Shown here piece by piece: positions 1,368 to 15,743 of a DNA stretch of 64,000 nt (position 1 is its first letter; every line of letters begins with the position of its first letter). Under the pieces are notes generated by a model. The model was not told the origin of the DNA. It did no database searches and worked only from the letters and a program-made list of their open reading frames with translations. The stretch is from contig NZ_JAUNVZ010000001.1 of NCBI RefSeq assembly GCF_030540545.1, positions 290,130-354,129 on the forward strand. Direction: 5' to 3'. The translations under genes and the position numbers were made by a program. The stretch comes from Rothia sp. (in: high G+C Gram-positive bacteria) (GTDB taxonomy: Bacteria > Actinomycetota > Actinomycetes > Actinomycetales > Micrococcaceae).

Positions 1368-3965
<2,598 letters not shown>

Positions 3966-4011
3966 AAGATCCTCTCCGAGTACTGGGTTTTGCTCTACTA
4001 CCCAATAGTGA

Positions 4012-4055
4012 ATAGTGTGGGCGGGTGGGTTATATAACCGACCCGCCCACACTAT
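4012..4055. terminator. Bidirectional intrinsic terminator after clpB
   Basis: ATAGTGTGGGCGGGT...ACCCGCCCACACTAT inverted repeat between convergent genes. Confidence 0.75.
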
Positions 4056-4058
4056 ATT

Positions 4059-4888
4059 TTATTGATGAGCTAGATAGTATTTCTTGAACTTTTCATTGTT
4101 CTCTTTAAAATCATCTAGATCTTTTTGCAGCTGCGTCTCATTCTTTTTAATAAGGGGTAGCTGATATGCTGCTTCAAGATCAGCAAGCTTTTGAATTGCC
4201 CCGGTATCTACAGCGCATTGCGCTTCAATGCCGGCAACTCGAATTTCCTCTTCGGTGAGAGGGCTATCCGAAAACTTTGGACTTCCGTCACCAATAATTG
4301 CTTTCTCGCCCTCATGGCTCCTGAGAATATCGGGGTCTGAGTCAATAGTTAGTCCTTTATCTCTAATACAGGAAATCCAATCCTTTGTTGCCTTATTCCA
4401 TTCGGGATCTTGTTTTGCTGATGCGCGAGCTTGAACTTCCAAATTGCGTGCGAGGGGAACCCGACCGACGGTGCCGATTGAATTGAGGGTTTCTTTGGCT
4501 TTGTCCTCACAGCCGAATTGTGCAGGATTAGCGCCATTACCTCGGGGCGTACGCTGGGTGTAGCCGTTTTTGGCAGCGAACTCAGGGTTCCAGGAGGCGT
4601 ATTCGCGCCCGGTACCGTCAAGGCGTAGAGATCCAGGAGCTTCATACGCCGCTCCATTTTCGGTAAAACAATTTTTGATCAGCAAATCGTGAGTTTTATT
4701 GTAGTAGCCTTCAATACCAATATGCAGGTATTCATCAAGAGGCTTAATAATACGATTATTGCTATAGTCTAGAGTCGCGTGTGCAGATGTGTCTTTTTCT
4801 GCAGCTGGATTATTGGAAACGCTGGAACAAGAAACCAGAAAAATAGGAATTACTGCTAGCGCACCAAACTTCTTCAGGGTTTTTTCAT
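4059..4888 (-). pseudogene. Lipoprotein of unknown function, frameshifted in an A6 tract right after the start codon
   Basis: The ATG at 4888 reads MKKP-stop. One extra A gives MKKTLKKFGALAVIPIFLVSC (lipobox), continuing without a stop into the track ORF 4059..4685, about 276 aa. Confidence 0.75.
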
Positions 4889-4906
4889 TCCTATCTACTT
4901 TCTAAG

Positions 4907-4943
4907 AAGGGCGGGAGAGAATCGGGATTTCCCTCCCGCCCTT
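4907..4943 (-). terminator. Hairpin between the crystallin-like gene and the lipoprotein gene
   Basis: AAGGGCGGGAG...CTCCCGCCCTT inverted repeat. Confidence 0.55.
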
Positions 4944-4961
4944 GTATAAATATATAATTAT

Positions 4962-5312
4962 TTACTCATCACAGCGCTGATATGAAGAGATGCGATCATT
5001 CCAATCGCCCCAATGAGTGCGGCCTGCGTAGTAACCGGCAAGAGTCGAGAAGTCTTGTCCATTGGTGTAGAAATAGTCCCCACCGTATCCGGCGTGATCA
5101 TACATGCGGTAGCATTCGTGATAGCTGCGGAACGAAGTTACCTGGTCGTTGAACGCATCCCCAATATATGCTGAAGAAGCATATGCATTGGTATTGTGGG
5201 ACCAGCCCGTGTACCATGCGTCCTTATAGAAGACGATGGCCTAAGACGGGGCTGAGGATGCGAGAAGTATGCCTCCTGCAAAGACAAGTGATAGTAAGTT
5301 GCGAACCTTCAT
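4962..5312 (-). pseudogene. Secreted beta/gamma-crystallin-like (inhibitor I36-type) small protein with in-frame TAG at codon 24
   Basis: Manual translation: MKVRNLLSLVFAGGILLASSAPS*AIVFYKDAWYTG...FNDQVTSFR...RMYDHAGYGG...WNDRISSYQRCDE; signal peptide plus two Greek-key motifs; GAAAGGA RBS. Confidence 0.75.
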
Positions 5313-5460
5313 GGTTTCGTCCTTTCAGCGTGATATGATGAAGAGCGGTCTTTGCTCTCCGAGAAGCGAGCACGCTGTTGTACTCAACTGTCTATCAAGT
5401 TTTATAGGTTTGTTACATATATCCCCCTTGAGAGTAGGTCTACGCTGATATATGTAGAGT

Positions 5461-5512
5461 AATACACAAAACTCTCGGTGTGTCATGCGACACGCCGAGA
5501 GTTTTGTGTATT
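5461..5512. terminator. Long hairpin terminator downstream of the ABC-F gene
   Basis: AATACACAAAACTCTCGG...CCGAGAGTTTTGTGTATT inverted repeat. Confidence 0.75.
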
Positions 5513-5518
5513 GGGTAA

Positions 5519-7177
5519 TTATTCGGAGAGATTCAGCGTGAACGTGGGCTTGAGAGCAGATGCGAAGTGCTCATGATGGCTAATAAAAAGCACAGCACCC
5601 TCATATACGCTCAGCACTTGAATCAGCCAATCCAGAGTAGAGGCATCCACATTATTGCTCGGCTCATCCAAAATCAGCAGACGAGGCGCCGGGGCGCTCA
5701 GCAGAGCGCACGCCACCGCCGCACGGAACTTCTCCCCACCGGAGAGCACACTCACATCCTTCTGCACCGTATCCGCGCGGAAAAGCAGGGAAGCAAGAGC
5801 ATCACGAATCTCCTGCTCACTCAGTCCGGGATTCACCCGCGCAATAGCCTGCAATAGGCTCAAACCCGACTCGAACCTTAGCCGCTGCGGAATATACCCA
5901 ACATCACCCGTTGCAAGTCGAGCCTCAAAACGCTCATTACGGTGCCCCGCAGCAGCCAGCTCAAGCTCGGCAGAAGAACCGGTAGGAGCGCTGGCTACAA
6001 TAGTGCGAATCAGAGAAGTCTTGCCCACACCATTACGCCCGCTAATACGCACACGATCCCCGTAATTCACCAGCATATGAGCACCGCTTTCCCTGTCCAC
6101 AAGGCTCAAAATCTGCTGATGGGCATGGCCGGATAAGGCGGGCATACGGAAATACACATGCTGCTCTTTACGTACAGCCCGCTGAGCCTGCTGTTGCTTC
6201 TGTTCGGCACGTTCACGGGTCGTATCGTGCACCCTCTGAGCCCTGGCAGCGGCAGACTGGGAGGATTGCTGCATGAGTCGCTTGAGCAGCTTATCGTTTT
6301 CCCCGCTGTGACGCACCTGGGAGGCAGAACGCGCACTACGCTCCTGCGCACGCACCCATTCACGCTGCTGCTTGCGAGCCTCGGTTTTTGCTTCCTGAGC
6401 TTCTTTCGTCGCCTGCTGTTGGGCGGCGTGTACCAGCTGCTCATAGTCGGTGTAGGAGCCCGGATAGAGAGTAAATTCGGTACCTTCGCGCCCGGAGTAG
6501 AGCTCAAGAATATGGTCACAGATATCCAGCAGCTGCTTATCGTGACTGACCATGAGCACCGGAATACTCAGAGCTTGAAGACCTGTCAATAATTCTGCCT
6601 GAGCGGCGGAATCTAGGTTATTACTCGGCTCATCAAGAATAAGCATTCTAGGATTCGGGTAGAGTGCAGCCGCCACAATAGCACTCACCAGCTGACCGTC
6701 AGAGAAACTCTCCACAGGACGAGCAAAGAACTCATAGAGCGCCGCACTCTCCAAACCCTGATAATCCAGGGCAGGGCCGAAAGAGCGCTCGCATAGATAA
6801 GCGTGTACCCGCTCGGCACAATCCCACTCATTGCCAATCAGCTCATAGAGCTCAGGCTCATATTCGCCCTCTTCCACGCGCTGTAGTGCATCCAATATGG
6901 CGGTAATACCAAAAATATCCGATAGACTGCGATAGCGATCCAGCCCCAAATCCTGCGGCACATAGGCGAAGGGCTCGGGTACGCTCACCGAGCCACGCGA
7001 GGGCTTAAGCTCACCAATAATGAGCTTAAGCAGGGTGGTTTTACCGGTGCCGTTATCGCCCACAATACCGGTAATTCCGGGCGGAATGACCAGGTTCAGG
7101 GAATCAAGTAGAGGCGCCTGACCGGGGTGCGCGTAGGTGCAATGAGAGAAGCTGATATTCATCATCTGGGCTGTCAT
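5519..7177 (-). CDS. ABC-F family ribosome-associated ATPase (antibiotic-resistance-like subfamily)
   Basis: Two NBDs (GDNGTGKT, GRNGVGKT; two ILDEPSNN Walker B motifs), helical linker, no TM segments; likely start ATG 7177 after GGAGGA (track extends to 7255). Confidence 0.85.
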   Translation of the reverse strand: MTAQMMNISFSHCTYAHPGQAPLLDSLNLVIPPGITGIVGDNGTGKTTLLKLIIGELKPSRGSVSVPEPFAYVPQDLGLDRYRSLSDIFGITAILDALQRVEEGEYEPELYELIGNEWDCAERVHAYLCERSFGPALDYQGLESAALYEFFARPVESFSDGQLVSAIVAAALYPNPRMLILDEPSNNLDSAAQAELLTGLQALSIPVLMVSHDKQLLDICDHILELYSGREGTEFTLYPGSYTDYEQLVHAAQQQATKEAQEAKTEARKQQREWVRAQERSARSASQVRHSGENDKLLKRLMQQSSQSAAARAQRVHDTTRERAEQKQQQAQRAVRKEQHVYFRMPALSGHAHQQILSLVDRESGAHMLVNYGDRVRISGRNGVGKTSLIRTIVASAPTGSSAELELAAAGHRNERFEARLATGDVGYIPQRLRFESGLSLLQAIARVNPGLSEQEIRDALASLLFRADTVQKDVSVLSGGEKFRAAVACALLSAPAPRLLILDEPSNNVDASTLDWLIQVLSVYEGAVLFISHHEHFASALKPTFTLNLSE

Positions 7178-7256
7178 ATTCCTCCTGGGGAGCTTCAACG
7201 CTCGGATAGGCGGGTGCAGTACAGATAGGGGAGAGGCGGCCCATAGTGAGGGCATG

Positions 7257-7440
7257 AAAAAACCTCGCCGGCGGCGCTATATAGCGTTAAAGATTCTGGT
7301 GCACCCGAACAATGTACGGGGTCTAGTCAACACGGGATCACGCTGAAGGTGATGGCCTGTGGATTAGATATTCACCGGATTCTTCTCTTTCGACGAGGGA
7401 TAAAGTCAGGCACGATTGGCACGCCTATAGCCATTCTATA
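7257..7440 (-). promoter_or_regulatory. Putative attenuator leader of the ABC-F gene with 3-codon uORF (M-N-I)
   Basis: -10 TAGAAT (7433-7438), purine-rich SD GAAAGAGAAG, GTG AAT ATC TAA (7375-7364), then GGCGAGG followed by a U6 tract (7262-7257). Confidence 0.5.
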
Positions 7441-7570
7441 CCCACTTTTACTCCACAAGCAAGCATCCCGCATATGGTGCTGGATGCAGGGGAGAGGAGA
7501 TACTGGAAAATAAAATGCGAAGAGCCTGGGTATATGGGTGCCAGACTCTTCGCACATAGAAATAAATTAA

Positions 7571-8227
7571 TTATTTTTTCTTCTTCGGAGAGTACCATGA
7601 AGAAAGGGAGCAATGAGCACTTGCATAGTCGCCGGTAGCTTCCTGATGGTCTACAACTTCACCGTCGACCTTGATTGTGCAGGAAACACTAGTCGCTCGT
7701 TCGTTGAGGCTGAAACCGGTAGAAGCGCTCAGAGAATAATACTCATGTCGTGGAAGCTCGATAGTCTTTGACCATTCGCTGGAAAAATCTTCACTGCTGT
7801 GAGTGCTCAACGTGCCATGTGAAACGTCAGCATCTCCATTAGAGGTTACCAACAGTTCAACCTGGTAGGTAGATGGGGTAGTTATACGGGTTTTAGCAGG
7901 AGTTGTTTCCTGCTTAGCAACTGGTGTTTGAACGTTTTCCTGTTTGGGCGCTGCAGGAGCTGCTGCAGAAACATTCGCCTGTGCAGGTGCAGATGCTGCT
8001 ACAACACTTTTCGAAGCACTAGCAGATGCCTTAGAAGAAGAGCTTGAAGCACTGGCACCAATGACCAGAGCACTACAACCGGCAAAGAGAAGCGCCATAC
8101 CCGCGCAGCCGCCACCGAGTGCCCACAGCCAGGGCTTGCTCTTTTTCTCCGGAACCTGTTGCGGGTAATAGACCGGTATCTGCTGCGGCTGCTGATTATT
8201 AGGGGACGAGAAATTATCCTGAGACAT
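7571..8227 (-). CDS. MmpS-domain single-pass membrane protein (paralog 1)
   Basis: P/Q-rich N-terminus, KPWLW-TM, S/A linker, C-terminal domain with VSCTIKVDG...AHC cysteine pair typical of MmpS. Confidence 0.75.
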   Translation of the reverse strand: MSQDNFSSPNNQQPQQIPVYYPQQVPEKKSKPWLWALGGGCAGMALLFAGCSALVIGASASSSSSKASASASKSVVAASAPAQANVSAAAPAAPKQENVQTPVAKQETTPAKTRITTPSTYQVELLVTSNGDADVSHGTLSTHSSEDFSSEWSKTIELPRHEYYSLSASTGFSLNERATSVSCTIKVDGEVVDHQEATGDYASAHCSLSSWYSPKKKK

Positions 8228-8250
8228 AATAAACCTTGAGTGAATAGTAA

Positions 8251-8290
8251 TATTCTGTTACTCCACGTGACATAGTGGAGTAACAGAATA
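8251..8290. terminator. Hairpin between MmpS paralogs 2 and 1
   Basis: TATTCTGTTACTCCAC...GTGGAGTAACAGAATA, 16-bp perfect stem. Confidence 0.7.
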
Positions 8291-8301
8291 TTGAATGTGT
8301 T

Positions 8302-8774
8302 TTACTTACCGTAGCCCCAGTCAATCGGCTTGGAGCAGGTTACAGAGACATGATCGCCACTTGCATCGTGGGATTCGTGCTCCACACCATCAATAAGAAC
8401 GGTGCAGCTCATTTCAGTAGCACCATCGATGATATCGCTAGAACCGTAGGCGCTATAGTAATCACGGCCCTTAACCTCTACAGTCTTAGACCATTCGCCA
8501 TTGAATTTTTCGCTGCTGGTAGAACCAGAAGGACCGTACACGACAGAGGCAGGGCCATTGGACTTAAAACGGAATTCTACGGTGTGAACCTTGTCGGCTT
8601 CTGCACTAGCAGAGCTAATAGTATCGGAAGTAACCTTTGCAGCGCCACCAATAAGAGCGGTGCATCCTGCAAAGAGCAGAATAATAACCAGGCAGCCGCC
8701 GCCCAGGAACCAGAGCCAGGGACGGGACTTCTTAGCTACGGGTGCGCTGGGGGGGGGGGAGTAACAGTAGACAT
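8302..8774 (-). pseudogene. MmpS-domain membrane protein (paralog 2), out of frame at a C11 tract
   Basis: ATG 8774 with GGAG RBS reads MSTVTPPPPAHP-stop. With C12 it reads MSTVTPPPPSAPVAKKSRPWLWFLGGGC...MSCTVLIDG...VTCSKPIDWGYGK (157 aa), closely similar to paralog 1. Confidence 0.8.
8749..8759 (-). repeat. Poly-C11 homopolymer in the 5' coding region
   Basis: 11 consecutive G on the + strand, consistent with the AGGGGV translation in the track ORF 8350..8847. Confidence 0.9.
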
Positions 8775-9003
8775 GGAAAACTCCAATCGAGTGAGATATG
8801 TGAGTGGTGAAGGGCGCGTTATTGCGCCCATCATGCGATTAGTATAGCTGAAATTCACAGGGTTCTGTTCTTAAACGGTCACTCGCTGCCTATAGAGTTG
8901 GGTCACATAAGTTTATGGCCTGGTTATACGTCCGAAGAGGGAAAACCGGGAAGGAATACCGTGTAGAGGTATCCATCCCGGTTCTTACTTAGTTCTGAGG
9001 TGC

Positions 9004-10014
9004 TTAGGAAAGGTCGAGGTCGTCCAGTAGGAGCTCTAAAGAAGGACCGACCATGCCGCGCCATAGGTAGGTGACCTTCGCATCCGCACGACCCGGGCCA
9101 CCATTAATTACACCCACCGGCTTACCCGCACGCAGCATATCCAACACCATCTTATAGCCACTCATCACAGCCACCGAGGTACCCACCAGCAGCAGACCCG
9201 AAGAGCTCTCCTGCAACTGCTTCAAGCGTGCCTTACGATCAGCAGGAACAGCCTCGCCAAAATACACAACATCCGGCTTCATACTCAAACTACCGCACAG
9301 ACGGCAACCAACCATCGTGAAATCCCGAACCTGCTCCTCCGAAAGGTCCACGTCACCATCGGGATTCACCCGCAAATTAACTTCTTCCAGTCGCTGCAGG
9401 TAGCCCGGGTTCGCATCCTCCAGGCGACGGTCAAAAGACTCGCGGCTCTCAAACTCACGGCAGCTTAGACACTGCACGCGACTCATATCCCCGTGCAGCG
9501 CCAGCACATTATCAGCGCCCGCATCCGCATGCAGACCATCCACATTCTGAGTCACAATAGCGCTCAACGCACCGGCAGCCTGCAACTCCGCCAGAGCATA
9601 GTGCGCACGATTCGGGTGAGCCTGCTTCATACGACGCCAACCCACATATGCACGCGCCCAATAGCGCAGGCGCGCCGCATCATCGTACATAAACTCCTGG
9701 TAGGTCATCGGGCGGTGATCGCGTAGAGCACCCTGAGGGCCACGATAATCCGGAATGCCAGACTCGGTACTGACACCCGCACCGGTCAAAACCAGCACAT
9801 TCCCCGCGCGCAGCATAGAGGCAATACCGGCACGAGCGGCATCATTATCAATGGGCGTATCAGAATCAGAAACCACGCGCGCAATGGAACGCAGGGCAGC
9901 ACGATGCACCGCGGCAATCTCTTCATTATCAAAAGCGGAATCGGTCCAGCGCGCCATGAAACTCCCTGTGTCTACTGAGCCCGCTCTATGCCGGGCAAAA
10001 CTCTCATCCACCAT
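9004..10014 (-). CDS. cobB: Sir2-family NAD-dependent protein deacylase (CobB-like sirtuin)
   Basis: LTGAGVSTESGIPDYRG, TQNVDGLH, LHG, CxxC...CxxC zinc site, KPDVVYFGE, GTS; start may be ATG 9957. Confidence 0.9.
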   Translation of the reverse strand: MVDESFARHRAGSVDTGSFMARWTDSAFDNEEIAAVHRAALRSIARVVSDSDTPIDNDAARAGIASMLRAGNVLVLTGAGVSTESGIPDYRGPQGALRDHRPMTYQEFMYDDAARLRYWARAYVGWRRMKQAHPNRAHYALAELQAAGALSAIVTQNVDGLHADAGADNVLALHGDMSRVQCLSCREFESRESFDRRLEDANPGYLQRLEEVNLRVNPDGDVDLSEEQVRDFTMVGCRLCGSLSMKPDVVYFGEAVPADRKARLKQLQESSSGLLLVGTSVAVMSGYKMVLDMLRAGKPVGVINGGPGRADAKVTYLWRGMVGPSLELLLDDLDLS

Positions 10015-10268
10015 AGTAGAGGCTTGAGGCGGTGCTCGCGCTCGCTTATACCCTCAGCTAAGCTCGCCCCGAGCGATATCGGGTACAGAAGGTGCACACA
10101 TAATTCCCAGGGAATACACATGAGCTACACCCTTCAAAGTGGGATATTCGGCGAGGTCAAGAGGCTATTATATTGAAGTATCTGTGCTGTGTACCCGATA
10201 CATGGATCGCGCGGCGCAGAGCCGATAGTGAGAGTTATCTACCCGTCTATTTTCGTCAAGGAGGCGTG

Positions 10269-11015
10269 ATGAGCGTTCCCCCGCAGCACCCCAAACAGAA
10301 TCAGCCCTACGGTGCTGCTTTCGACCCGGATGCGCCCTTTGACCCCAACGCACCCTTTAACCCGGTGGCACCGAGGTATGGGCAGCAACAGCAGCAAAAT
10401 GGCCAGGGCTACGCGCAGCCCTCACCCTATGCCCAAGCCGCGCCCCTGGCGCCTCAAACCCCGCAGCGATCCGCCTACGCTCAGAGTGCCTATGCGCAGA
10501 ATGCGCACGGGGCGCAGCATCATAGCGGTCCGTTGGATGCACCCTACGCCCACACCATCGAAGAAGAAACCAAACCCATCTGGCCTTGGGTCAGTGCCGG
10601 CGTGGGTGTTGTGGTGCTCGTGCTGATTGTGGCTGTGGTTCTTGCCTTTAGCGGCGCTCGGGGTAACGCGCCCACGCCGGCGGCAAGCGCCATTTCCTCA
10701 CCGAGTCCCTCGGCGACCCAGGGTGTATCGGTGACTCTCAAAGTTCAAAGCAATGGTGCAGCGGATATTAGCTATGGCAGTATGAAGAACTCTTCCAAAG
10801 CCAAGGACTCTATCAATGGTGCTTGGTCTAAAGATGTACATATTCCCGCAGGTCAGGATTATTTCGTCAGTGTATATGCCCACGGTGCTGATAGTATCAG
10901 CTGCTCTATTTTTGTGGACGGCAAAGAGGTCGATACTAAAAGCGCCACGGGATCCAGCTCAAGTGTGTACTGCTCAATTCCCCTTGATGTGCTCAACCAG
11001 AAGAATAAGGTCTAG
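10269..11015 (+). CDS. MmpS-domain single-pass membrane protein (paralog 3)
   Basis: Q/P-rich N-terminus, KPIWPW-TM, ISCSIFVDG...VYC; start ATG 10269 after AAGGAGG (track extends to 10173). Confidence 0.75.
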   Translation: MSVPPQHPKQNQPYGAAFDPDAPFDPNAPFNPVAPRYGQQQQQNGQGYAQPSPYAQAAPLAPQTPQRSAYAQSAYAQNAHGAQHHSGPLDAPYAHTIEEETKPIWPWVSAGVGVVVLVLIVAVVLAFSGARGNAPTPAASAISSPSPSATQGVSVTLKVQSNGAADISYGSMKNSSKAKDSINGAWSKDVHIPAGQDYFVSVYAHGADSISCSIFVDGKEVDTKSATGSSSSVYCSIPLDVLNQKNKV

Positions 11016-11041
11016 GCTGAGCTACTAGCCTTTATATACTC

Positions 11042-11073
11042 TGCGCCCCGGATACATGTGTATCCGGGGCGCA
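11042..11073 (+). terminator. Hairpin after MmpS paralog 3
   Basis: TGCGCCCCGGATAC-ATGT-GTATCCGGGGCGCA. Confidence 0.7.
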
Positions 11074-11133
11074 CCTCTTTAAAACCTTGCCAAGGGGAGA
11101 GATAGGGTCATATAGAGAAAAGTTTGCGTCATA

Positions 11134-11161
11134 TTCAGGAAACATTCAGAAAATACTCATA
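11134..11161 (+). promoter_or_regulatory. 11-bp-period direct repeats (OmpR-family, MprA-like box)
   Basis: TTCAGG-N5-TTCAGA-N5-CTCATA about 90 bp upstream of paralog 4. Confidence 0.35.
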
Positions 11162-11251
11162 GGATATAAAGGTAGTGTGTTATCTGGCTCCGGCTATCGG
11201 TTGGGCTGGATAATCTGACAGACCATATACACCGTACTGAAAGAGAGAGTT

Positions 11252-12541
11252 ATGAGCATCCCACCGCCCAATAACGCACCCCAGCCCGGTTCTGAACCTC
11301 AGAACACTGCACCCCAGGCACCTGCAGGCGCTGTGCCTGCGGTACCTCCGACTCCCGCTGGCGCTCCCGCTCCGGGCGCACCCCAGGGCGGTTACGGCTA
11401 CGACCCGAATGCTCAGGCATCCTACCCGCAGCAGGCACAGCAGCCCTACGCTCAGGATCCCAACGCTCCCTTCGTACCCCCGGCATATCAGCAGCAGCCC
11501 GGTCAGCCCTACGGTCAGGACGCCTACGCAGCGGGCCCTGGCGGCTACGCTCAGCCCACCGGCGGTTACGCACCCTATAGCCAGTACCCGCAGGAGCCTG
11601 CCGAGAAGAAGCCGATCTGGCCTTGGATTGCCGGCGGTTCCGGTCTGCTGGTTATTGTTCTGGTTCTGGTGCTTGTGCTGGTCTTTAGCATGAACGGCAA
11701 GAGCACCCCGGATGCACCCGTGACCACGGCAGCAGATACCACCAGCGCATCCGCAGAAACTTCTAGTGCTTCTGCTTCGGCGTCCTCGAGCTCCAGCAGC
11801 TCTTCCTCTGCTAGCGCGAGCGCTTCGGCATCCTCTAGCTCTTCTTCTGCGTCAGCACCCCAGGCTAGTGGCGATAAGCTGCCTCGTTACGCTCCCGATG
11901 GCGCGAAGAACGACGATAAGGTCAAGGTCAAGGTCACCGCTAAGGTGACCGGCAAGGCTAAGATCCGTTACGGCGCTTCCGGTTCCACCAGCACCGAAGA
12001 AGTTACTAATAGCGAGTTTGTGAAAGAAGCCGAAGTCACCCGTAAAGATGGCTACGATCTGGACGTTAGCGCTGACTACAATGATGATGCAGCTGAGGTG
12101 AGCTGTGCTCTGAGCGTTAATGATCAGGTGATTTCTCGTTACTCTGCTAAGGGTGCTAGCTCCTCGGTACAGTGCTCGATTCCGATGGAACACAAGATGC
12201 CCGAGCTCTACAACCGCGACTACATGCGCAAGGGCAGCGACTACGAGGGTGAAGAGGTAAACATCGAGGCGAAGGTTACTAGCAATGGTAATGTCCGTCT
12301 CTCCTACGGTCCCACCGAGGCAAGCAACCGTATTAAGCACAAGGGCGATTGGTCCACCACTGCAAAGCAGGAACGTCGCGAGAGCTATAGCGTATATGTG
12401 ACGTCCAGCTATGAAGATGGCGCAACCGAGATGAGCTGCACCATTCTGGTCAACGGCAAGGAAGTTGCTAAGAATACTGCAACGGGTAAGAACAGCAATG
12501 TAACCTGCACTATTCCTTACGAAGCTCGCCATAAGAGCTAA
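11252..12541 (+). CDS. Membrane protein with two tandem MmpS domains (paralog 4)
   Basis: P/Q/Y/G-rich N-terminus, KPIWPW-TM, poly-Ser linker, two domains each with xSCxxxVN...VxC. Confidence 0.75.
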   Translation: MSIPPPNNAPQPGSEPQNTAPQAPAGAVPAVPPTPAGAPAPGAPQGGYGYDPNAQASYPQQAQQPYAQDPNAPFVPPAYQQQPGQPYGQDAYAAGPGGYAQPTGGYAPYSQYPQEPAEKKPIWPWIAGGSGLLVIVLVLVLVLVFSMNGKSTPDAPVTTAADTTSASAETSSASASASSSSSSSSSASASASASSSSSSASAPQASGDKLPRYAPDGAKNDDKVKVKVTAKVTGKAKIRYGASGSTSTEEVTNSEFVKEAEVTRKDGYDLDVSADYNDDAAEVSCALSVNDQVISRYSAKGASSSVQCSIPMEHKMPELYNRDYMRKGSDYEGEEVNIEAKVTSNGNVRLSYGPTEASNRIKHKGDWSTTAKQERRESYSVYVTSSYEDGATEMSCTILVNGKEVAKNTATGKNSNVTCTIPYEARHKS

Positions 12542-12566
12542 AAGCTACTATTCCTCGCGCATAATA

Positions 12567-12613
12567 TACACTCATGGGTTTTTAGGTATACGTCCTAGAA
12601 ACCCATGAGTGTA
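12567..12613 (+). terminator. Hairpin after MmpS paralog 4
   Basis: TACACTCATGGGTTT...AAACCCATGAGTGTA. Confidence 0.7.
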
Positions 12614-12799
12614 TCTTAATCTTGAGCTGAGATTTAGGGTTAATAAACTAAGGATGTACTGGCTAAAAACCCGCGAAATTCCGCGGATTTTTAGGGATTT
12701 TCACCGCTTCGACAAGGACGTAGAAAAATACTGTGAAGAGCTGGCGTTTTGACGCCCAAAATCCACACATAGACATACAAAAATTGTTAGGATAATTCC

Positions 12800-13827
12800 A
12801 TGAACACTAAGAAACTCACTTCTTTTGGCGCAGCAGCCGCGCTGACCCTCTCCATGAGCGGTGCAGCTCTGGCTCCCGTCATTGCTGTCGAACCCGCCGT
12901 TGTAAGCACTGCAGCCGGTGCCTCCGTAGGTAGCGGCCAGGTGCAGCTGTCCAGCACCTGGAACCAGGGCGAAGCCCTGACCATTGCGGGCACTAACTTT
13001 CTGAACGCTACTGGCCAGCCCGTTGAGGTTATTATTGCCTTCGCCGGCCCCAATGGTGTGATCACCGTTAACGGCCAGCAGGCATTTAGCGTAACCGCGG
13101 ATGCCGCCGGTGCTTTACTATCAGCGTACCCTGGGATGAGGCACTGACCGACCAGGTCTCTGTGAGCGTATACGTTGGCCCCTCCGATCTGTCCATTTCT
13201 CCCGTGGTTGTGGGTCAGGTCAGCATTGTGAAGGCAACCCCGACCGAGCAGCCCAGCGAGCAGCCCACCGAGGCTCCGACTACCGCTCCGAGCGAGGCTC
13301 CTTCTGAGGCTCCCAGTGAGGCACCGTCGGAACAGCCCACCCAGGAGCCGACTGCCGCTCCCACTGAGCAGCCCACCGTAGCTCCCAGCGCTTCCTCGAG
13401 TGCATCTGCTGAGGCTAGTGCCTCTGCGTCTACTTCTGCGCCCGAAGCTGACGCGGATGTAGCAATCCACGAGGATGCCGCTGGAGATAAGATGGAATCT
13501 GCGGAGAACGGCGAGTCCACCCGTTTCGCTAATTGCCGCGAGGTGCGCGAGGCAGGCCTGGCGCCGATTCGCTCCGATCACCCGGACTTCCGCAAGAAGT
13601 TCGACCGCGATAATGACGGTATTGGTTGCGAGTCTGACTCCGACTGGGGTCGTAGCTCCTCCTCTTCTGATTCCTCGAGCACCGGTGGTTCTTCGACCAC
13701 TACCTCCAGCTCTTCGGGCTCCCTGGCTAAGACCGGTGCTAATGGTGTAGCAAGCGCCGCAGGCCTGGGTCTGCTGGCACTGGGTGCAGGTGCTGCTGTT
13801 ATCGTGCGTGCACGCCGCCAGAGCTAA
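12800..13827 (+). pseudogene. Sortase-anchored (LAKTG) surface protein with Excalibur Ca-binding domain, split by a 1-bp deletion
   Basis: Track ORFs 12800..13147 (signal peptide) and 13162..13827 join if TTT at 13114-13116 is TTTT (GAFTISVPWDEALTDQVSV); FANCREVR...DRDNDGIGCE Excalibur motif; LAKTG-TM-RARRQS sorting signal; TEQP/SEAP stalk. Confidence 0.8.
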
Positions 13828-13920
13828 CAGGGCGCGTACACGTCGCCAGAGCTAAGTATTAGCATAATTGCATATATATGTGTTTTGGGTGTGCCTAGCG
13901 TTCAGTTGAGCCTCATCCAG

Positions 13921-13948
13921 CACAGCTAAAACACAGCAATCGAACAGC
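13921..13948 (+). promoter_or_regulatory. PhoP-type direct repeats upstream of the DUF4956-VTC operon
   Basis: CACAGC (13921), CACAGC (13932), AACAGC (13943) at 11-bp period; a second pair CACAGG/CACAGA at 14026/14037. Confidence 0.55.
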
Positions 13949-14115
13949 CCCCACTTGGCAAAATGCCGGGTGGGGGCTGTTTTGCGTCCAAAAATAACGA
14001 AAACTTATACAGAGAAAACCCTAAACACAGGCGAGGCACAGATTCGGGCGGAAAGATAGAACTAAGCAGAAACGGGGCACACCCGATACAACACGAAGTA
14101 CAACGAAAGAAGAAG

Positions 14116-14733
14116 ATGATGACCTTCCTGCCTATGGCAATCGCCGACCTACTGGCCATCGCGGCATTGTGCACCATCTACCTGATGCGCCACCGTAACC
14201 GCGAAATGGCACTGTCCTACACCATTATCAATGTGGGTGTCTTCGCCGTTACCGTAGCCATGGCAAGCGCCTCCACCACCAGCGCGGCGCTGGGGCTGGG
14301 ACTCTTCGGTGTCCTTTCCATTATCCGCCTGCGCTCCACTGCCTTGAGCCAGCGGGAAGTTGCCTACTACTTCGTGGCTCTGGCAATGGGTCTGATTGCA
14401 GGTATCAATATTGACCCCGCTTATATCGCCTATAGCCTGATGGGTCTGCTGCTGGTCATTATGGCACTGGCAGACGGCAGCATTAAGAGTACTGCTCAGA
14501 AGAGCCAGATTATTACCGTAGACCGCGCTCTTAGCCGTGAAGAAGAGATTATTGCTTATCTGAATGCACGCCTGGGCTACTCGATCAGCTCCGTAAGCAT
14601 TAAAGAAATTGACCTGATCAACGATAAGACTATCGCTGAGATTCAGTACAGTGTACCGGCATATGCACCGGTAGAAGCAGCGCAGAGTGCACCGGCTGCT
14701 CTAAGCGCCACCCGCGTACCCGCAGCCTACTAA
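14116..14733 (+). CDS. DUF4956-family membrane protein
   Basis: INVGVFAV, GLGLFGVLSIIRLRS, REVAYYFVALAMGL motifs, several TM helices, soluble C-terminus; position before a VTC gene; likely start ATG 14116. Confidence 0.8.
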   Translation: MMTFLPMAIADLLAIAALCTIYLMRHRNREMALSYTIINVGVFAVTVAMASASTTSAALGLGLFGVLSIIRLRSTALSQREVAYYFVALAMGLIAGINIDPAYIAYSLMGLLLVIMALADGSIKSTAQKSQIITVDRALSREEEIIAYLNARLGYSISSVSIKEIDLINDKTIAEIQYSVPAYAPVEAAQSAPAALSATRVPAAY

Positions 14734-14774
14734 AGATGTATAGACCCGTTATACGGGTTACTTAAGGAGAGAAA

Positions 14775-15743
14775 ATGCGCCCTTTTGAAACAATCACCCA
14801 CCCGAATTGGCAGAACACTATCGCCACCGCATTTTCTCCGCGCCCAACCACCAGAGAGGATATCAAAATGGCACTCGTACCCACCTACTGGCAGAGCATT
14901 AGCCTGGAGGACATGAACGCTAAGGCCGCCATGCAAACCCGAATCGACCGCAAGTACATTGTCGAGGCACGCTACGCGGCGGCAGTCATGGCAGAGCTGA
15001 ACGCGGATGCCGCCGTCATGGAAATCAACGGCCAGCGTGAGTTCTCCTACGACTCGGTCTACTTCGATACCCCCTCCCTGGCAAGCTACCGCGCTGCCGC
15101 AACCGGTCGCCGCAACCGCTTCAAGGTGCGTACCCGCAGCTACCTGGATAGCGATTTGAGCTTCCTGGAAGTCAAGACTGAGGGTGAGCGCGCCATGACC
15201 GTAAAGGAACGCATCCCCTACCAGATTGAAAACCGCGACCGCCTGACCCGCGAAGGCCTGGACTATGTTGCCGAATCCCTAACCGGACTGCTGGAAGAAC
15301 CCGTGACCAATCTGGAACCGGTACTGACCACCGAATACAAGCGAACCACGGTGTTTTTGCCCCAGAGCCAAGAGAACCCGGTGGACTCGCGCATGACCGT
15401 GGATACCTCCCTGGCGTGGACCTCCCTGAGCGAAAACGCCCTGCTGTACAACGTGGACTTCGGTAACTACCACGGCCGTACCCTGGGTACCCGCTACACC
15501 GCACCGGGCATGGTCATTATTGAAACCAAATCCGGTACCGCCCCCTCGGTTGCCGATAAGCACCTGTGGAGCGCGGGAATCCGCCCGGTGAAGATCTCCA
15601 AATTTGCTACCGGCATGGCTGCGCTGAACCCGCAGCTGCCCGCCAATAAGTGGAATCGCGTGATTGAGCGCTGGATGCAGCTCTCCCCGCAGGGTGTGCC
15701 CCTGCAGGATCCGATCAGTGCGGCTATTCCGCTGGTTCGCTAA
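14775..15743 (+). CDS. VTC (CYTH-like polyphosphate polymerase domain) protein
   Basis: RIDRKYIV, SVYFDT, RFKVRTRSY, FLEVK, RMTVD, IIETK, SKF tunnel motifs; start may be ATG 14868. Confidence 0.85.
   Translation: MRPFETITHPNWQNTIATAFSPRPTTREDIKMALVPTYWQSISLEDMNAKAAMQTRIDRKYIVEARYAAAVMAELNADAAVMEINGQREFSYDSVYFDTPSLASYRAAATGRRNRFKVRTRSYLDSDLSFLEVKTEGERAMTVKERIPYQIENRDRLTREGLDYVAESLTGLLEEPVTNLEPVLTTEYKRTTVFLPQSQENPVDSRMTVDTSLAWTSLSENALLYNVDFGNYHGRTLGTRYTAPGMVIIETKSGTAPSVADKHLWSAGIRPVKISKFATGMAALNPQLPANKWNRVIERWMQLSPQGVPLQDPISAAIPLVR

Follow-up and report, generated by a model that had tools for sequence, protein, structure and literature searches.

Orphan MmpS-fold membrane proteins form a strain-variable family in a Rothia genome and have relatives in actinobacterial prophages

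To our knowledge, nearly all research on MmpS proteins has come from work on tuberculosis and has treated them as helpers of MmpL pumps in siderophore export and bedaquiline efflux. The window analyzed here, a 64,000-nucleotide stretch of a Rothia genome, raises the question of what such proteins do where they stand without a pump gene. Positions 7571 to 12541 hold four MmpS-type genes, P1 to P4, and the sirtuin gene cobB, with P1 and P2 on one side of cobB, P3 and P4 on the other, and all four transcribed outward from it, just where an earlier reading of the DNA letters (here, the sequence-only reading) had placed them. That reading also spoke of a non-mycolate actinobacterium, and Rothia is a non-mycolate genus. 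The answer developed below is that P1 to P4, together with a fifth gene elsewhere in the genome, are a lineage-restricted, strain-variable expansion of orphan MmpS-fold proteins without an operonic MmpL. Each protein carries one or two beta-sandwich domains with a Cys pair outside the cytoplasmic membrane, to which a transmembrane (TM) helix behind a long disordered cytoplasmic tail tethers P3, P4, and the fifth paralog, and a signal-anchor that ends in a lipobox-like motif tethers P1 and P2. We propose tentatively, with somewhat less than even confidence, that these proteins are MmpL-independent binding adaptors with an accessory role in the envelope, most plausibly that of altering what phages meet.

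Are the domains one family, and is the family MmpS? There are five domains of ~90 to 95 residues, one at the C terminus of each of P1, P2, and P3 and two in succession in P4; they align at 27 to 38% identity and share two invariant Cys residues. The proteins of one related strain, represented by metagenome contigs L146 and L147 and used for all strain comparisons here, match the non-orthologous window paralogs in BLASTP searches with E values of 1e-10 to 1e-33, so the kinship of P1 to P4 is not a chance pattern and the five-domain paralogous set that had been claimed is real. The tandem domain claimed for the fourth paralog is likewise there, as two domains detected by hidden Markov model (HMM) and both modeled in P4. 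The count of four paralogs holds for the window but falls short of the genome, in which a search with the five-domain profile found a fifth gene on contig C138 (G000:C138:157429-158700, minus strand; 423 amino acids [aa], two domains); the genome total is seven domains in five genes.

The Pfam family PF05423 (MmpS, Mycobact_memb) matches P3 at 23.2 bits against a cut-off of 21, covering 14 to 136 of its 139 positions. P1 gives a weak match of 12.7 bits, below that cut-off, and the PF05423 scan returned no match for P2 and P4 and nothing in the genome outside the cluster. Among 126 relatives gathered by profile search, 35 match PF05423 at an E value of at most 0.01. A scan of NCBIfam gave sub-threshold matches only, to Rv0361_Cterm and to low-complexity regions. 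When the five-domain profile was run against PDB sequences, MmpS5 came out on top (E 0.004, over the Cys-Cys motif only). The two Cys residues that are invariant in the window domains are invariant in the 126 relatives also; the pair is conserved in all mycobacterial MmpS proteins and forms a disulfide in LamA and MmpS5 (PMC12421883).

Structure prediction points the same way. An AlphaFold (AF2) model of P3, built from the 126-sequence alignment, has a disordered tail, a helix at residues 109 to 126, and a beta domain with a predicted local distance difference test (pLDDT) score above 93. Foldseek searches of the PDB with this model returned MmpS5 at E values of 1.4e-5 (9mvz_A) and 1.2e-4 and no other match below 0.001; P3 superposes on MmpS5 chain 8em5_A with a TM-score of 0.72 and a root mean square deviation (rmsd) of 3.1 Å, and the next PDB match has an E value of 0.04. 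In the model of P4, the tail (residues 1 to 129) and the linker (149 to 204) have a pLDDT of about 30, a helix spans residues 130 to 148, and both beta domains score 87 to 97; its top two PDB matches are again MmpS5 (TM-score 0.77, rmsd 2.1 Å). For both proteins, then, the top two are MmpS5 (TM-score 0.72 to 0.77, rmsd 2.1 to 3.1 Å, probability 1.00), with the matches that follow at least 3 to 300 times weaker by E value and MmpS4 (2lw3; E 0.21) among the weaker ones. Because the best PDB matches of the P3 and P4 models are MmpS5, the window domains are predicted to have the MmpS fold; HMM search and structure prediction agree on the fold that had been claimed, and neither gave a mismatch.

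The family is wider than simple searches reveal. A word-based homolog search with P3 found P3 itself and one relative of 76% identity. The domain profile found 373 cluster representatives among 1.84 billion proteins, most of them 120 to 260 aa long with the domain at the C terminus. Also, when 400 other genomes sampled from the class were searched, the profile matched 17 of them, from four other genera. This survey picked up proteins of 177 to 323 aa that run from a P-rich tail through a PRWLW or KKxWPW motif and a TM helix to a linker and the domain; 9 of the 10 survey matches tested pass the PF05423 cut-off.

Is there a pump for these proteins? The HMM scan found no MMPL match in the 64-kb window, which confirms the absence of mmpL from it that had been asserted. 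The genome has a single full-length MMPL gene (G000:C122:57859-60624; 921 aa), on the same contig as the cluster and about 237 kb from it; it lies downstream of a response regulator and a histidine kinase, and no MmpS-like gene adjoins it. From its place behind the two-component pair, this transporter may be under two-component control. The first outer loop of the transporter also contains a coiled-coil-like insert (region G000:C122:55205-60624). A canonical mmpS gene shares an operon with its mmpL, and the TM helix of MmpS5 docks on TM helix 8 (TMH8) of MmpL5 (PMC12122801).

A census of 25 species-level genomes of the genus, this one included, found MMPL genes in 24 and the MmpS-like domain in 6. 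The five domain-bearing genomes besides this one have one gene each, and a PF05423 scan of the 25 genomes found no further MmpS-type gene. No MMPL gene was found within 10 kb of these five single copies; class-wide, one lies within 10 kb of the domain at 1 of 19 loci. The domain is not operonic with the transporters of the genus, which do without it. The case for MmpL independence of the window proteins, as the sequence-only reading had it, is circumstantial: no MMPL gene lies near any genus copy, and MMPL occurs in 24 of 25 genomes versus 6 of 25 for the domain. What qualifies that claim is the distant MMPL gene on the same contig.

The window proteins might instead be ordinary MmpS-type accessory subunits of this MMPL (resistance-nodulation-division) transporter, bridging or stabilizing its protomers as MmpS5 does for MmpL5, while the paralogs tune assembly or substrate range. 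Their fold and Cys pair are those of MmpS5, the genome does encode an MMPL protein of 921 aa whose periplasmic insert resembles a coiled coil, and all six domain-bearing genomes of the genus also have MMPL genes. Nevertheless, such a role seems distinctly unlikely, given that no copy is operonic, in contrast to canonical mmpS-mmpL operons, that 18 of the 19 domain-free genus genomes still keep MMPL, and that five paralogs per single transporter are hard to explain. Moreover, P1, P2, and many relatives appear to be lipid-anchored, whereas MmpS5 docks by its TM helix (PMC12122801).

How the domains are held at the membrane differs within the cluster. P3, P4, and the C138 paralog have Pro/Gln/Tyr-rich tails of 100 to 170 residues, followed by a basic W-P-W motif, a Cys-free TM helix, and a Ser/Ala-rich linker. 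In P3, a disordered P/Q/Y-rich tail of ~100 aa leads to TKPIWPW, the TM helix (aa 109 to 126), a Ser/Ala/Pro linker, and the domain; in P4, a disordered tail of ~120 aa and of the same composition leads to KKPIWPW, the TM helix (aa 130 to 148), a Ser-rich linker, and the two domains. P1 and P2 start with short N-termini of about 30 and 17 residues. P1 continues from its P/Q-rich N terminus into KKSKPWLW, a hydrophobic segment that ends in LLFAGC, a Ser/Ala linker, and the MmpS-fold domain, and P2, past a tract of 11 C's, has KKSRPWLW, a hydrophobic segment with LLFAGC, a short linker, and the domain. The order of parts that had been described (P/Q-rich tail, basic W-x-W motif, TM segment, Ser/Ala linker, beta domain) can be seen in the sequences and models, with long tails in P3 and P4 but short ones with a lipobox-like ending in P1 and P2.

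The LLFAGC that ends the hydrophobic segment of P1 and P2 fits a PROSITE-type lipobox pattern. The same pattern occurs in 50 of the 126 relatives, plain short-signal lipoproteins among them, and in two genus copies (L102 and L103); in 19 of the 126, a DUF4190 membrane domain takes the place of the lipobox. The domain thus appears to be hung on the outside of the cytoplasmic membrane by interchangeable anchors. A predicted lipid anchor would be unable to pack on TMH8 as MmpS5 does, which argues for a free-standing module. If signal peptidase II cleaves P1 and P2, their tail would be merely a long signal-peptide n-region, which weakens for these two the idea of signaling cytoplasmic tails that the sequence-only reading had put forward; P3 and P4 retain long tails. 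The tail of LamA/MmpS3, an orphan MmpS protein of mycobacteria, is phosphorylated on Thr and Tyr (PMC4322841).

The genes sit in variable surroundings. The block that contains the cluster has a GC content of 0.48 to 0.54 versus 0.568 for the genome, and synteny shows it to be absent from six other genus species examined. The related strain retains the order cobB, P2, P1, ABC-F, with the amino acid identities listed in Table 1, and it has an additional two-domain paralog (401 aa; L147:2888-4093), absent from the window, between its P4 ortholog and an Excalibur-domain gene. Copy number differs between the strains. All four genes have a Nei-Gojobori ratio of nonsynonymous to synonymous substitution rates (dN/dS) of 0.12 to 0.19, so P1 to P4 are under purifying selection, and a test for gene-wide positive selection found none. 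P1 is a mosaic: its tail and TM segment are 98% identical between the strains with a dS of 0.6, and its domain is 60% identical with a saturated dS, which points to allele replacement or gene conversion and not to a point-mutation arms race. The family had been called diversifying, and that word holds for copy number and alleles, which vary between strains; a claim of positive selection is not supported.

The assembled sequence of P2 is out of frame: its C11 homopolymer leads to a stop, and C9 or C12 would restore the full frame. In the related strain, the ortholog P0008 is intact (156 aa), with CCTAC8 in frame in place of the out-of-frame ACTC11. The genome has only eight homopolymers of at least 9 nucleotides (nt), all of them G or C (9 to 12 nt) and none A or T. 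By its sequence, the P2 tract fits phase variation.

Long G/C tracts in general may be contingency loci or homopolymer assembly errors. One of the other seven, the C9 at C45:105811, stands directly after an ATG and puts a 396-aa open reading frame (ORF) out of frame, the same design as in P2; two more, the G12 at C45:28738 and the C10 at C137:27515, are preceded by hexamers resembling TTGACA and TTGACT, as expected of tracts in a promoter spacer. The single homolog in genus member G001 (L099:9156-10033) is split into two overlapping ORFs of 196 and 96 aa in different frames, with the break after a GYNTGNLNGQ repeat region, while its intact relative P0010 has 330 aa; this homolog may be a second switchable copy in the genus.

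These patterns bear on whether the proteins belong to the core machinery of the cell. They could be housekeeping scaffolds of wall growth and division like LamA, with kinases reading the tails and the outer domains positioning wall-synthesis proteins. P3 and P4 have the architecture of LamA/MmpS3 and Rv2507, down to the basic W-x-W motif next to the membrane, and the window profile finds such proteins of 177 to 323 aa in other actinomycete genomes. The LamA tail is phosphorylated (PMC4322841), and Tyr, Ser, and Thr are abundant in the tails of P3 and P4. This role, too, looks improbable. A core growth factor should be conserved, yet the domain is missing from 19 of the 25 genus genomes; the genes lie in a variable block, and one is frameshifted; one source describes LamA as exclusive to mycobacteria (10.1101/2023.12.01.569614); and the domain tree does not group the window domains with LamA-like ones.

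The sequence-only reading favored adhesins or surface receptors, and a host-facing role of this kind would suit extracytoplasmic Ig-like domains on Ser/Ala-rich stalks, strain variation, and a copy that is possibly phase variable. We consider it very unlikely and did not uphold the claim: searches of Pfam, NCBIfam, and the PDB turned up nothing like a known adhesin domain, the proteins lack a wall-sorting signal, and a membrane tether puts the domains beneath or within the wall. The stalks, at about 25 to 80 residues, seem in our judgment too short to cross a Gram-positive wall, and dN/dS is low. That the genes no longer have a function and are decaying leftovers of a mobile or once phage-borne set, as the lower GC content of the block and the frameshift of P2 might suggest, is highly improbable, for P1, P3, P4, and the fifth paralog are intact, the dN/dS values against the related strain indicate that the genes are kept by selection, and the tail and TM segment of P1 are almost unchanged despite the synonymous divergence.

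What, then, might the family do? A lead comes from phages. The PHROGs family phrog_8241, which has no described function, matches P1 (E 4e-5), P2 via its intact ortholog P0008 (E 0.003), and P4 in its C-terminal part only (E 2e-4), and it does not match P3. In P1, P0008, and most relatives tested, the match spans nearly the whole length of the profile. The E values are modest (1e-3 to 1e-6). Also, when the model of P3 was compared with the viral structures of BFVD, it matched small membrane or uncharacterized proteins of Mycobacterium phages Myrna and MA5 and of Gordonia phages Bowser and VanLee with a probability of 1.00.

The contig context was examined for ten relatives. P0019 is the next gene after a cI-like repressor and an ImmA-type metalloprotease, which face a cro-like gene, an antirepressor, and an excisionase-type helix-turn-helix gene. 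P0037 follows a repressor and metalloprotease and immediately precedes a phage integrase, P0028 comes after a phage-type repressor and a Panacea-domain gene, a Peptidase_M78 gene is found near P0024, and P0040 lies in a phage-like early region. In the IMG/VR viral contigs L153, L154, and L156, the family member adjoins an integrase-like gene, and in L120 and L155 it is at the contig end. These viral-contig relatives keep the full layout, including PPKKRKKWPW ahead of the hydrophobic segment. We also observe that a gene for an MmpS-fold membrane protein, placed between the repressor/ImmA protease and the integrase, recurs in the lysogeny modules of actinobacterial prophages (L116/L120, L123-L125, L149-L151, L153, L154, and L156). 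Two sets of matches were set aside: those of P0040 in IMG/VR, which cover the N-terminal TM region only, and those of P0019 to "superinfection exclusion" PHROGs, which cover the TM and linker part only and were not used as evidence.

The reading that we favor is that P1 to P4 and their fifth paralog would work as extracytoplasmic protein-binding adaptors in the manner of LamA/MmpS3 and Rv2507, in an accessory and strain-variable rather than a core role. Their likeliest job would be to bind or mask an envelope component and so to change what the outside meets, phages first, and changes at the C11 tract would turn P2 on or off. The accessory character is proposed because of the patchy distribution in the genus, the variable block, the extra paralog in the related strain, and the mosaic P1. 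The repressor-integrase slot of temperate phages usually holds superinfection-exclusion and lysogenic-conversion genes; a phage-facing role is proposed because a sister branch with the same layout occupies prophage lysogeny modules, the usual place of such genes. A wider idea, possible but doubtful, is that the MmpS fold, beyond serving as a mycobacterial transporter accessory, is a general actinobacterial envelope-adaptor module that temperate actinophages carry within their lysogeny modules to exclude other phages. The Rothia array would on this view be a partly phase-variable chromosomal battery of exclusion or masking factors, some with tandem domains and some lipid-anchored.

Several observations weigh against the adaptor proposal, above all against its phage-facing part. 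An MMPL gene is present elsewhere in the genome, and binding to its product is compatible with the sequence data; even LamA is functionally tied to MmpL3 (PMC9678360). The Cys of the lipobox-like motif comes later than is usual for lipoproteins, at residue 51 of P1 and residue 37 of P2. The window genes lie outside any prophage, and the domain tree puts them, with weak support, in the other half from the prophage-borne branch. PADLOC reported nothing meaningful, weak matches to PD-T4-6 over the TM and linker part being judged noise, and tblastn queries with three family members returned no match in 50,697 GenBank phage records. The dN/dS values indicate purifying selection, not an arms race, and the frameshift at the P2 tract could be a fixed lesion or an assembly error. 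Further searches were also negative: no phage-like ORF of at least 80 aa was seen by look in positions 5000 to 15500, where the neighbors had no PHROGs scan; P0008 has no close relative in IMG/VR; no integrase was found near the 19 class-wide chromosomal copies in a phmmer search with one integrase query, which is a weak test; and literature searches on MmpS in Rothia, MmpS in phages, and PF05423 found nothing relevant.

The sirtuin at the center of the cluster invites a separate question. By its match to NCBIfam NF003738 (E 6e-85), cobB scores 284.6 bits, under the 305-bit cut-off. In six other genus species, cobB is found beside clpB, in five of them directly after it and on the same strand, and in none of the six does it have an MmpS-like neighbor. 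A sirtuin-MmpS "system" was considered and rejected: the domain was never found within 10 kb of cobB at the 80 loci examined, which come from named genomes of Rothia, Corynebacterium, Micromonospora, and others. We conclude that cobB, a core gene with different neighbors in other species, is probably a positional neighbor around which the variable region grew, and not a functional partner; a functional unit with the sirtuin is not supported.

Some features of the surroundings deserve record. In the window, cobB is inverted relative to clpB (1368-10014), unlike in the six other species. A 32-nt inverted repeat, 84% complementary, pairs the P2 domain (8396-8427) with the second domain of P4 (12416-12447) and could mediate inversions. 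The immediate neighbors of the cluster are an ABC-F gene, cobB, and an Excalibur-domain gene; the Excalibur protein, of sortase type (LAKTG), is split into two ORFs (window 12800-13827), and its counterpart in the related strain (L147:4333-5358) is intact, with 341 aa and 85 to 87% identity. The fifth paralog stands among paralogous membrane proteins that share an N-terminal WP(L/I)GPM(T/P)..QW...F module (G000:C138:152000-164000), where two adjacent ORFs of 385 and 440 aa overlap, both running through a low-complexity stretch rich in Cys, Gly, Val, and Trp; this looks like another variable surface-protein region. The hairpins that the sequence-only reading had described were found after P1, P2, and P4 (Table 1).

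TABLE 1 Features of the cluster and its flanks (window positions unless a contig of assembly G000 is named) and amino acid identity to the related strain
Feature	Position	Strand	Description	Identity
Lower-GC variable block with the cluster	4059-13827 (about 10 kb)		Between clpB and the DUF4956 operon	
Terminator-like hairpin and T-run after P1	7507-7553	-	Direct reading: GCGAAGAGTCTGG...CCAGGCTCTTCGC, then ATTTTATTTT	
P1	7571-8227	-	218-aa ORF	63%
P1 domain, MmpS fold (predicted)	about 7598-7867		Within P1; from domain alignment	
Hairpin between P2 and P1	8248-8293		Perfect 18-bp stem	
P2	8302-8774	-	ATG at 8774; about 156 aa if in frame	92% (ortholog P0008)
P2 domain, MmpS fold (predicted)	about 8326-8586		Within P2	
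C11 homopolymer in P2	8749-8759	-	15 nt after ATG	
cobB-type sirtuin (SIR2/CobB deacylase)	9004-10014	-	Pfam SIR2 E 4e-38	
P3	10269-11015	+	248 aa	71%
P3 domain, MmpS fold (predicted)	aa 152-236, about 10722-10976		P3 without lipobox	
P4	11252-12541	+	429 aa; two domains by HMM	84%
P4 tandem domains, MmpS fold (predicted)	aa 223-310 and aa 335-421			
Long terminator-like hairpin after P4	12562-12618	+		
DUF4956 (flanking gene)				95%
Other seven G/C tracts in the genome	C45:28738-28749, C45:105811-105819, C137:27515-27524, C138:203060-203068, C138:212888-212896, C144:56404-56412, C144:103847-103856			

A multi-copy, strain-variable family, some of whose members are putatively lipid-anchored, in a non-mycolate, oral-type actinobacterium and the copies beside the integrase of prophages suggest that the MmpS fold is a free-standing envelope-binding module with a wider biology. 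The adaptor proposal offers a hypothesis that can be tested for two sets of proteins lacking an assigned function, namely, the orphan MmpS proteins, Rv2507 included, and phrog_8241 with the recurrent prophage gene. We regard the prophage association of the fold as the part most worth following. If the prophage homologs do exclude phages, they would be a new class of actinophage exclusion factor, with a bearing on work with Mycobacterium and Gordonia phages.

How do these proteins compare with systems already described? First, they resemble MmpS5 and MmpS4 (PF05423; PDB 8em5, 9mvz, 8zkp, and 2lw3), their best structural and sequence-profile matches, in having an N-terminal anchor, an extracytoplasmic beta-sandwich of ~90 residues, and a Cys pair. 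The sequence identity of the window domains to MmpS5 is about 17 to 23%. MmpS4 and MmpS5 are proteins of about 140 aa without a long cytoplasmic tail, co-encoded with MmpL and docked by a TM helix (PMC12122801), whereas the window genes have no adjacent MmpL, tails of up to 120 aa, a tandem domain in P4, and putative lipobox anchors in P1 and P2.

Second, LamA (MmpS3, Rv2198c) and Rv2507 are orphan mycobacterial MmpS proteins that are independent of MmpL (PMC12421883, PMC8093794, PMC9678360). LamA belongs to the divisome; at the new pole it inhibits wall synthesis, and to the old pole it recruits PgfA and MmpL3 (PMC12421883, PMC8093794, PMC9678360). Rv2507 is an essential MmpS homolog whose annotation reads proline-rich membrane protein and whose function is unknown (PMC12421883, PMC8093794). 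Proteins of this type act as adaptors that recruit envelope proteins (PMC12421883, PMC9678360, PMC8093794). Like them, the window genes lack an adjacent MmpL and encode a TM helix and a Cys pair; P3, P4, and the C138 paralog share the LamA-type architecture of proline-rich tail, TM helix, linker, and MmpS domain, and the tails of P1 and P2 are short. LamA is present as one conserved gene, in contrast to the multi-copy, strain-variable array found in this non-mycolate genus. The LamA-like relatives from the class (L140, L142, and L135_4474) fall in a different clade from the window domains, and because the domain tree separates the two, the window genes do not appear to be LamA orthologs.

Third, the Sie-type superinfection-exclusion proteins of lactococcal phages and the prophage-mediated defense genes of mycobacteriophages are membrane proteins of lysogeny modules. 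The sister branch of the family (P0019, P0037, P0028, L153, L154, and L156) is like the Sie-type genes in occupying the same slot and in encoding small, membrane-anchored proteins with a domain outside. The family has no sequence relation to characterized Sie proteins beyond weak matches in the TM region, and the window copies are chromosomal.

The sequence-only reading knew of no description of such a system, but orphan MmpS proteins with proline-rich tails, LamA/MmpS3 and Rv2507, had been described (PMC12421883, PMC8093794, PMC9678360), and in this sense the kind of protein is already known. New are the lipobox-like motif in P1 and P2, the strain-variable copy number and the mosaic P1, and the prophage-borne sister branch that matches phrog_8241.

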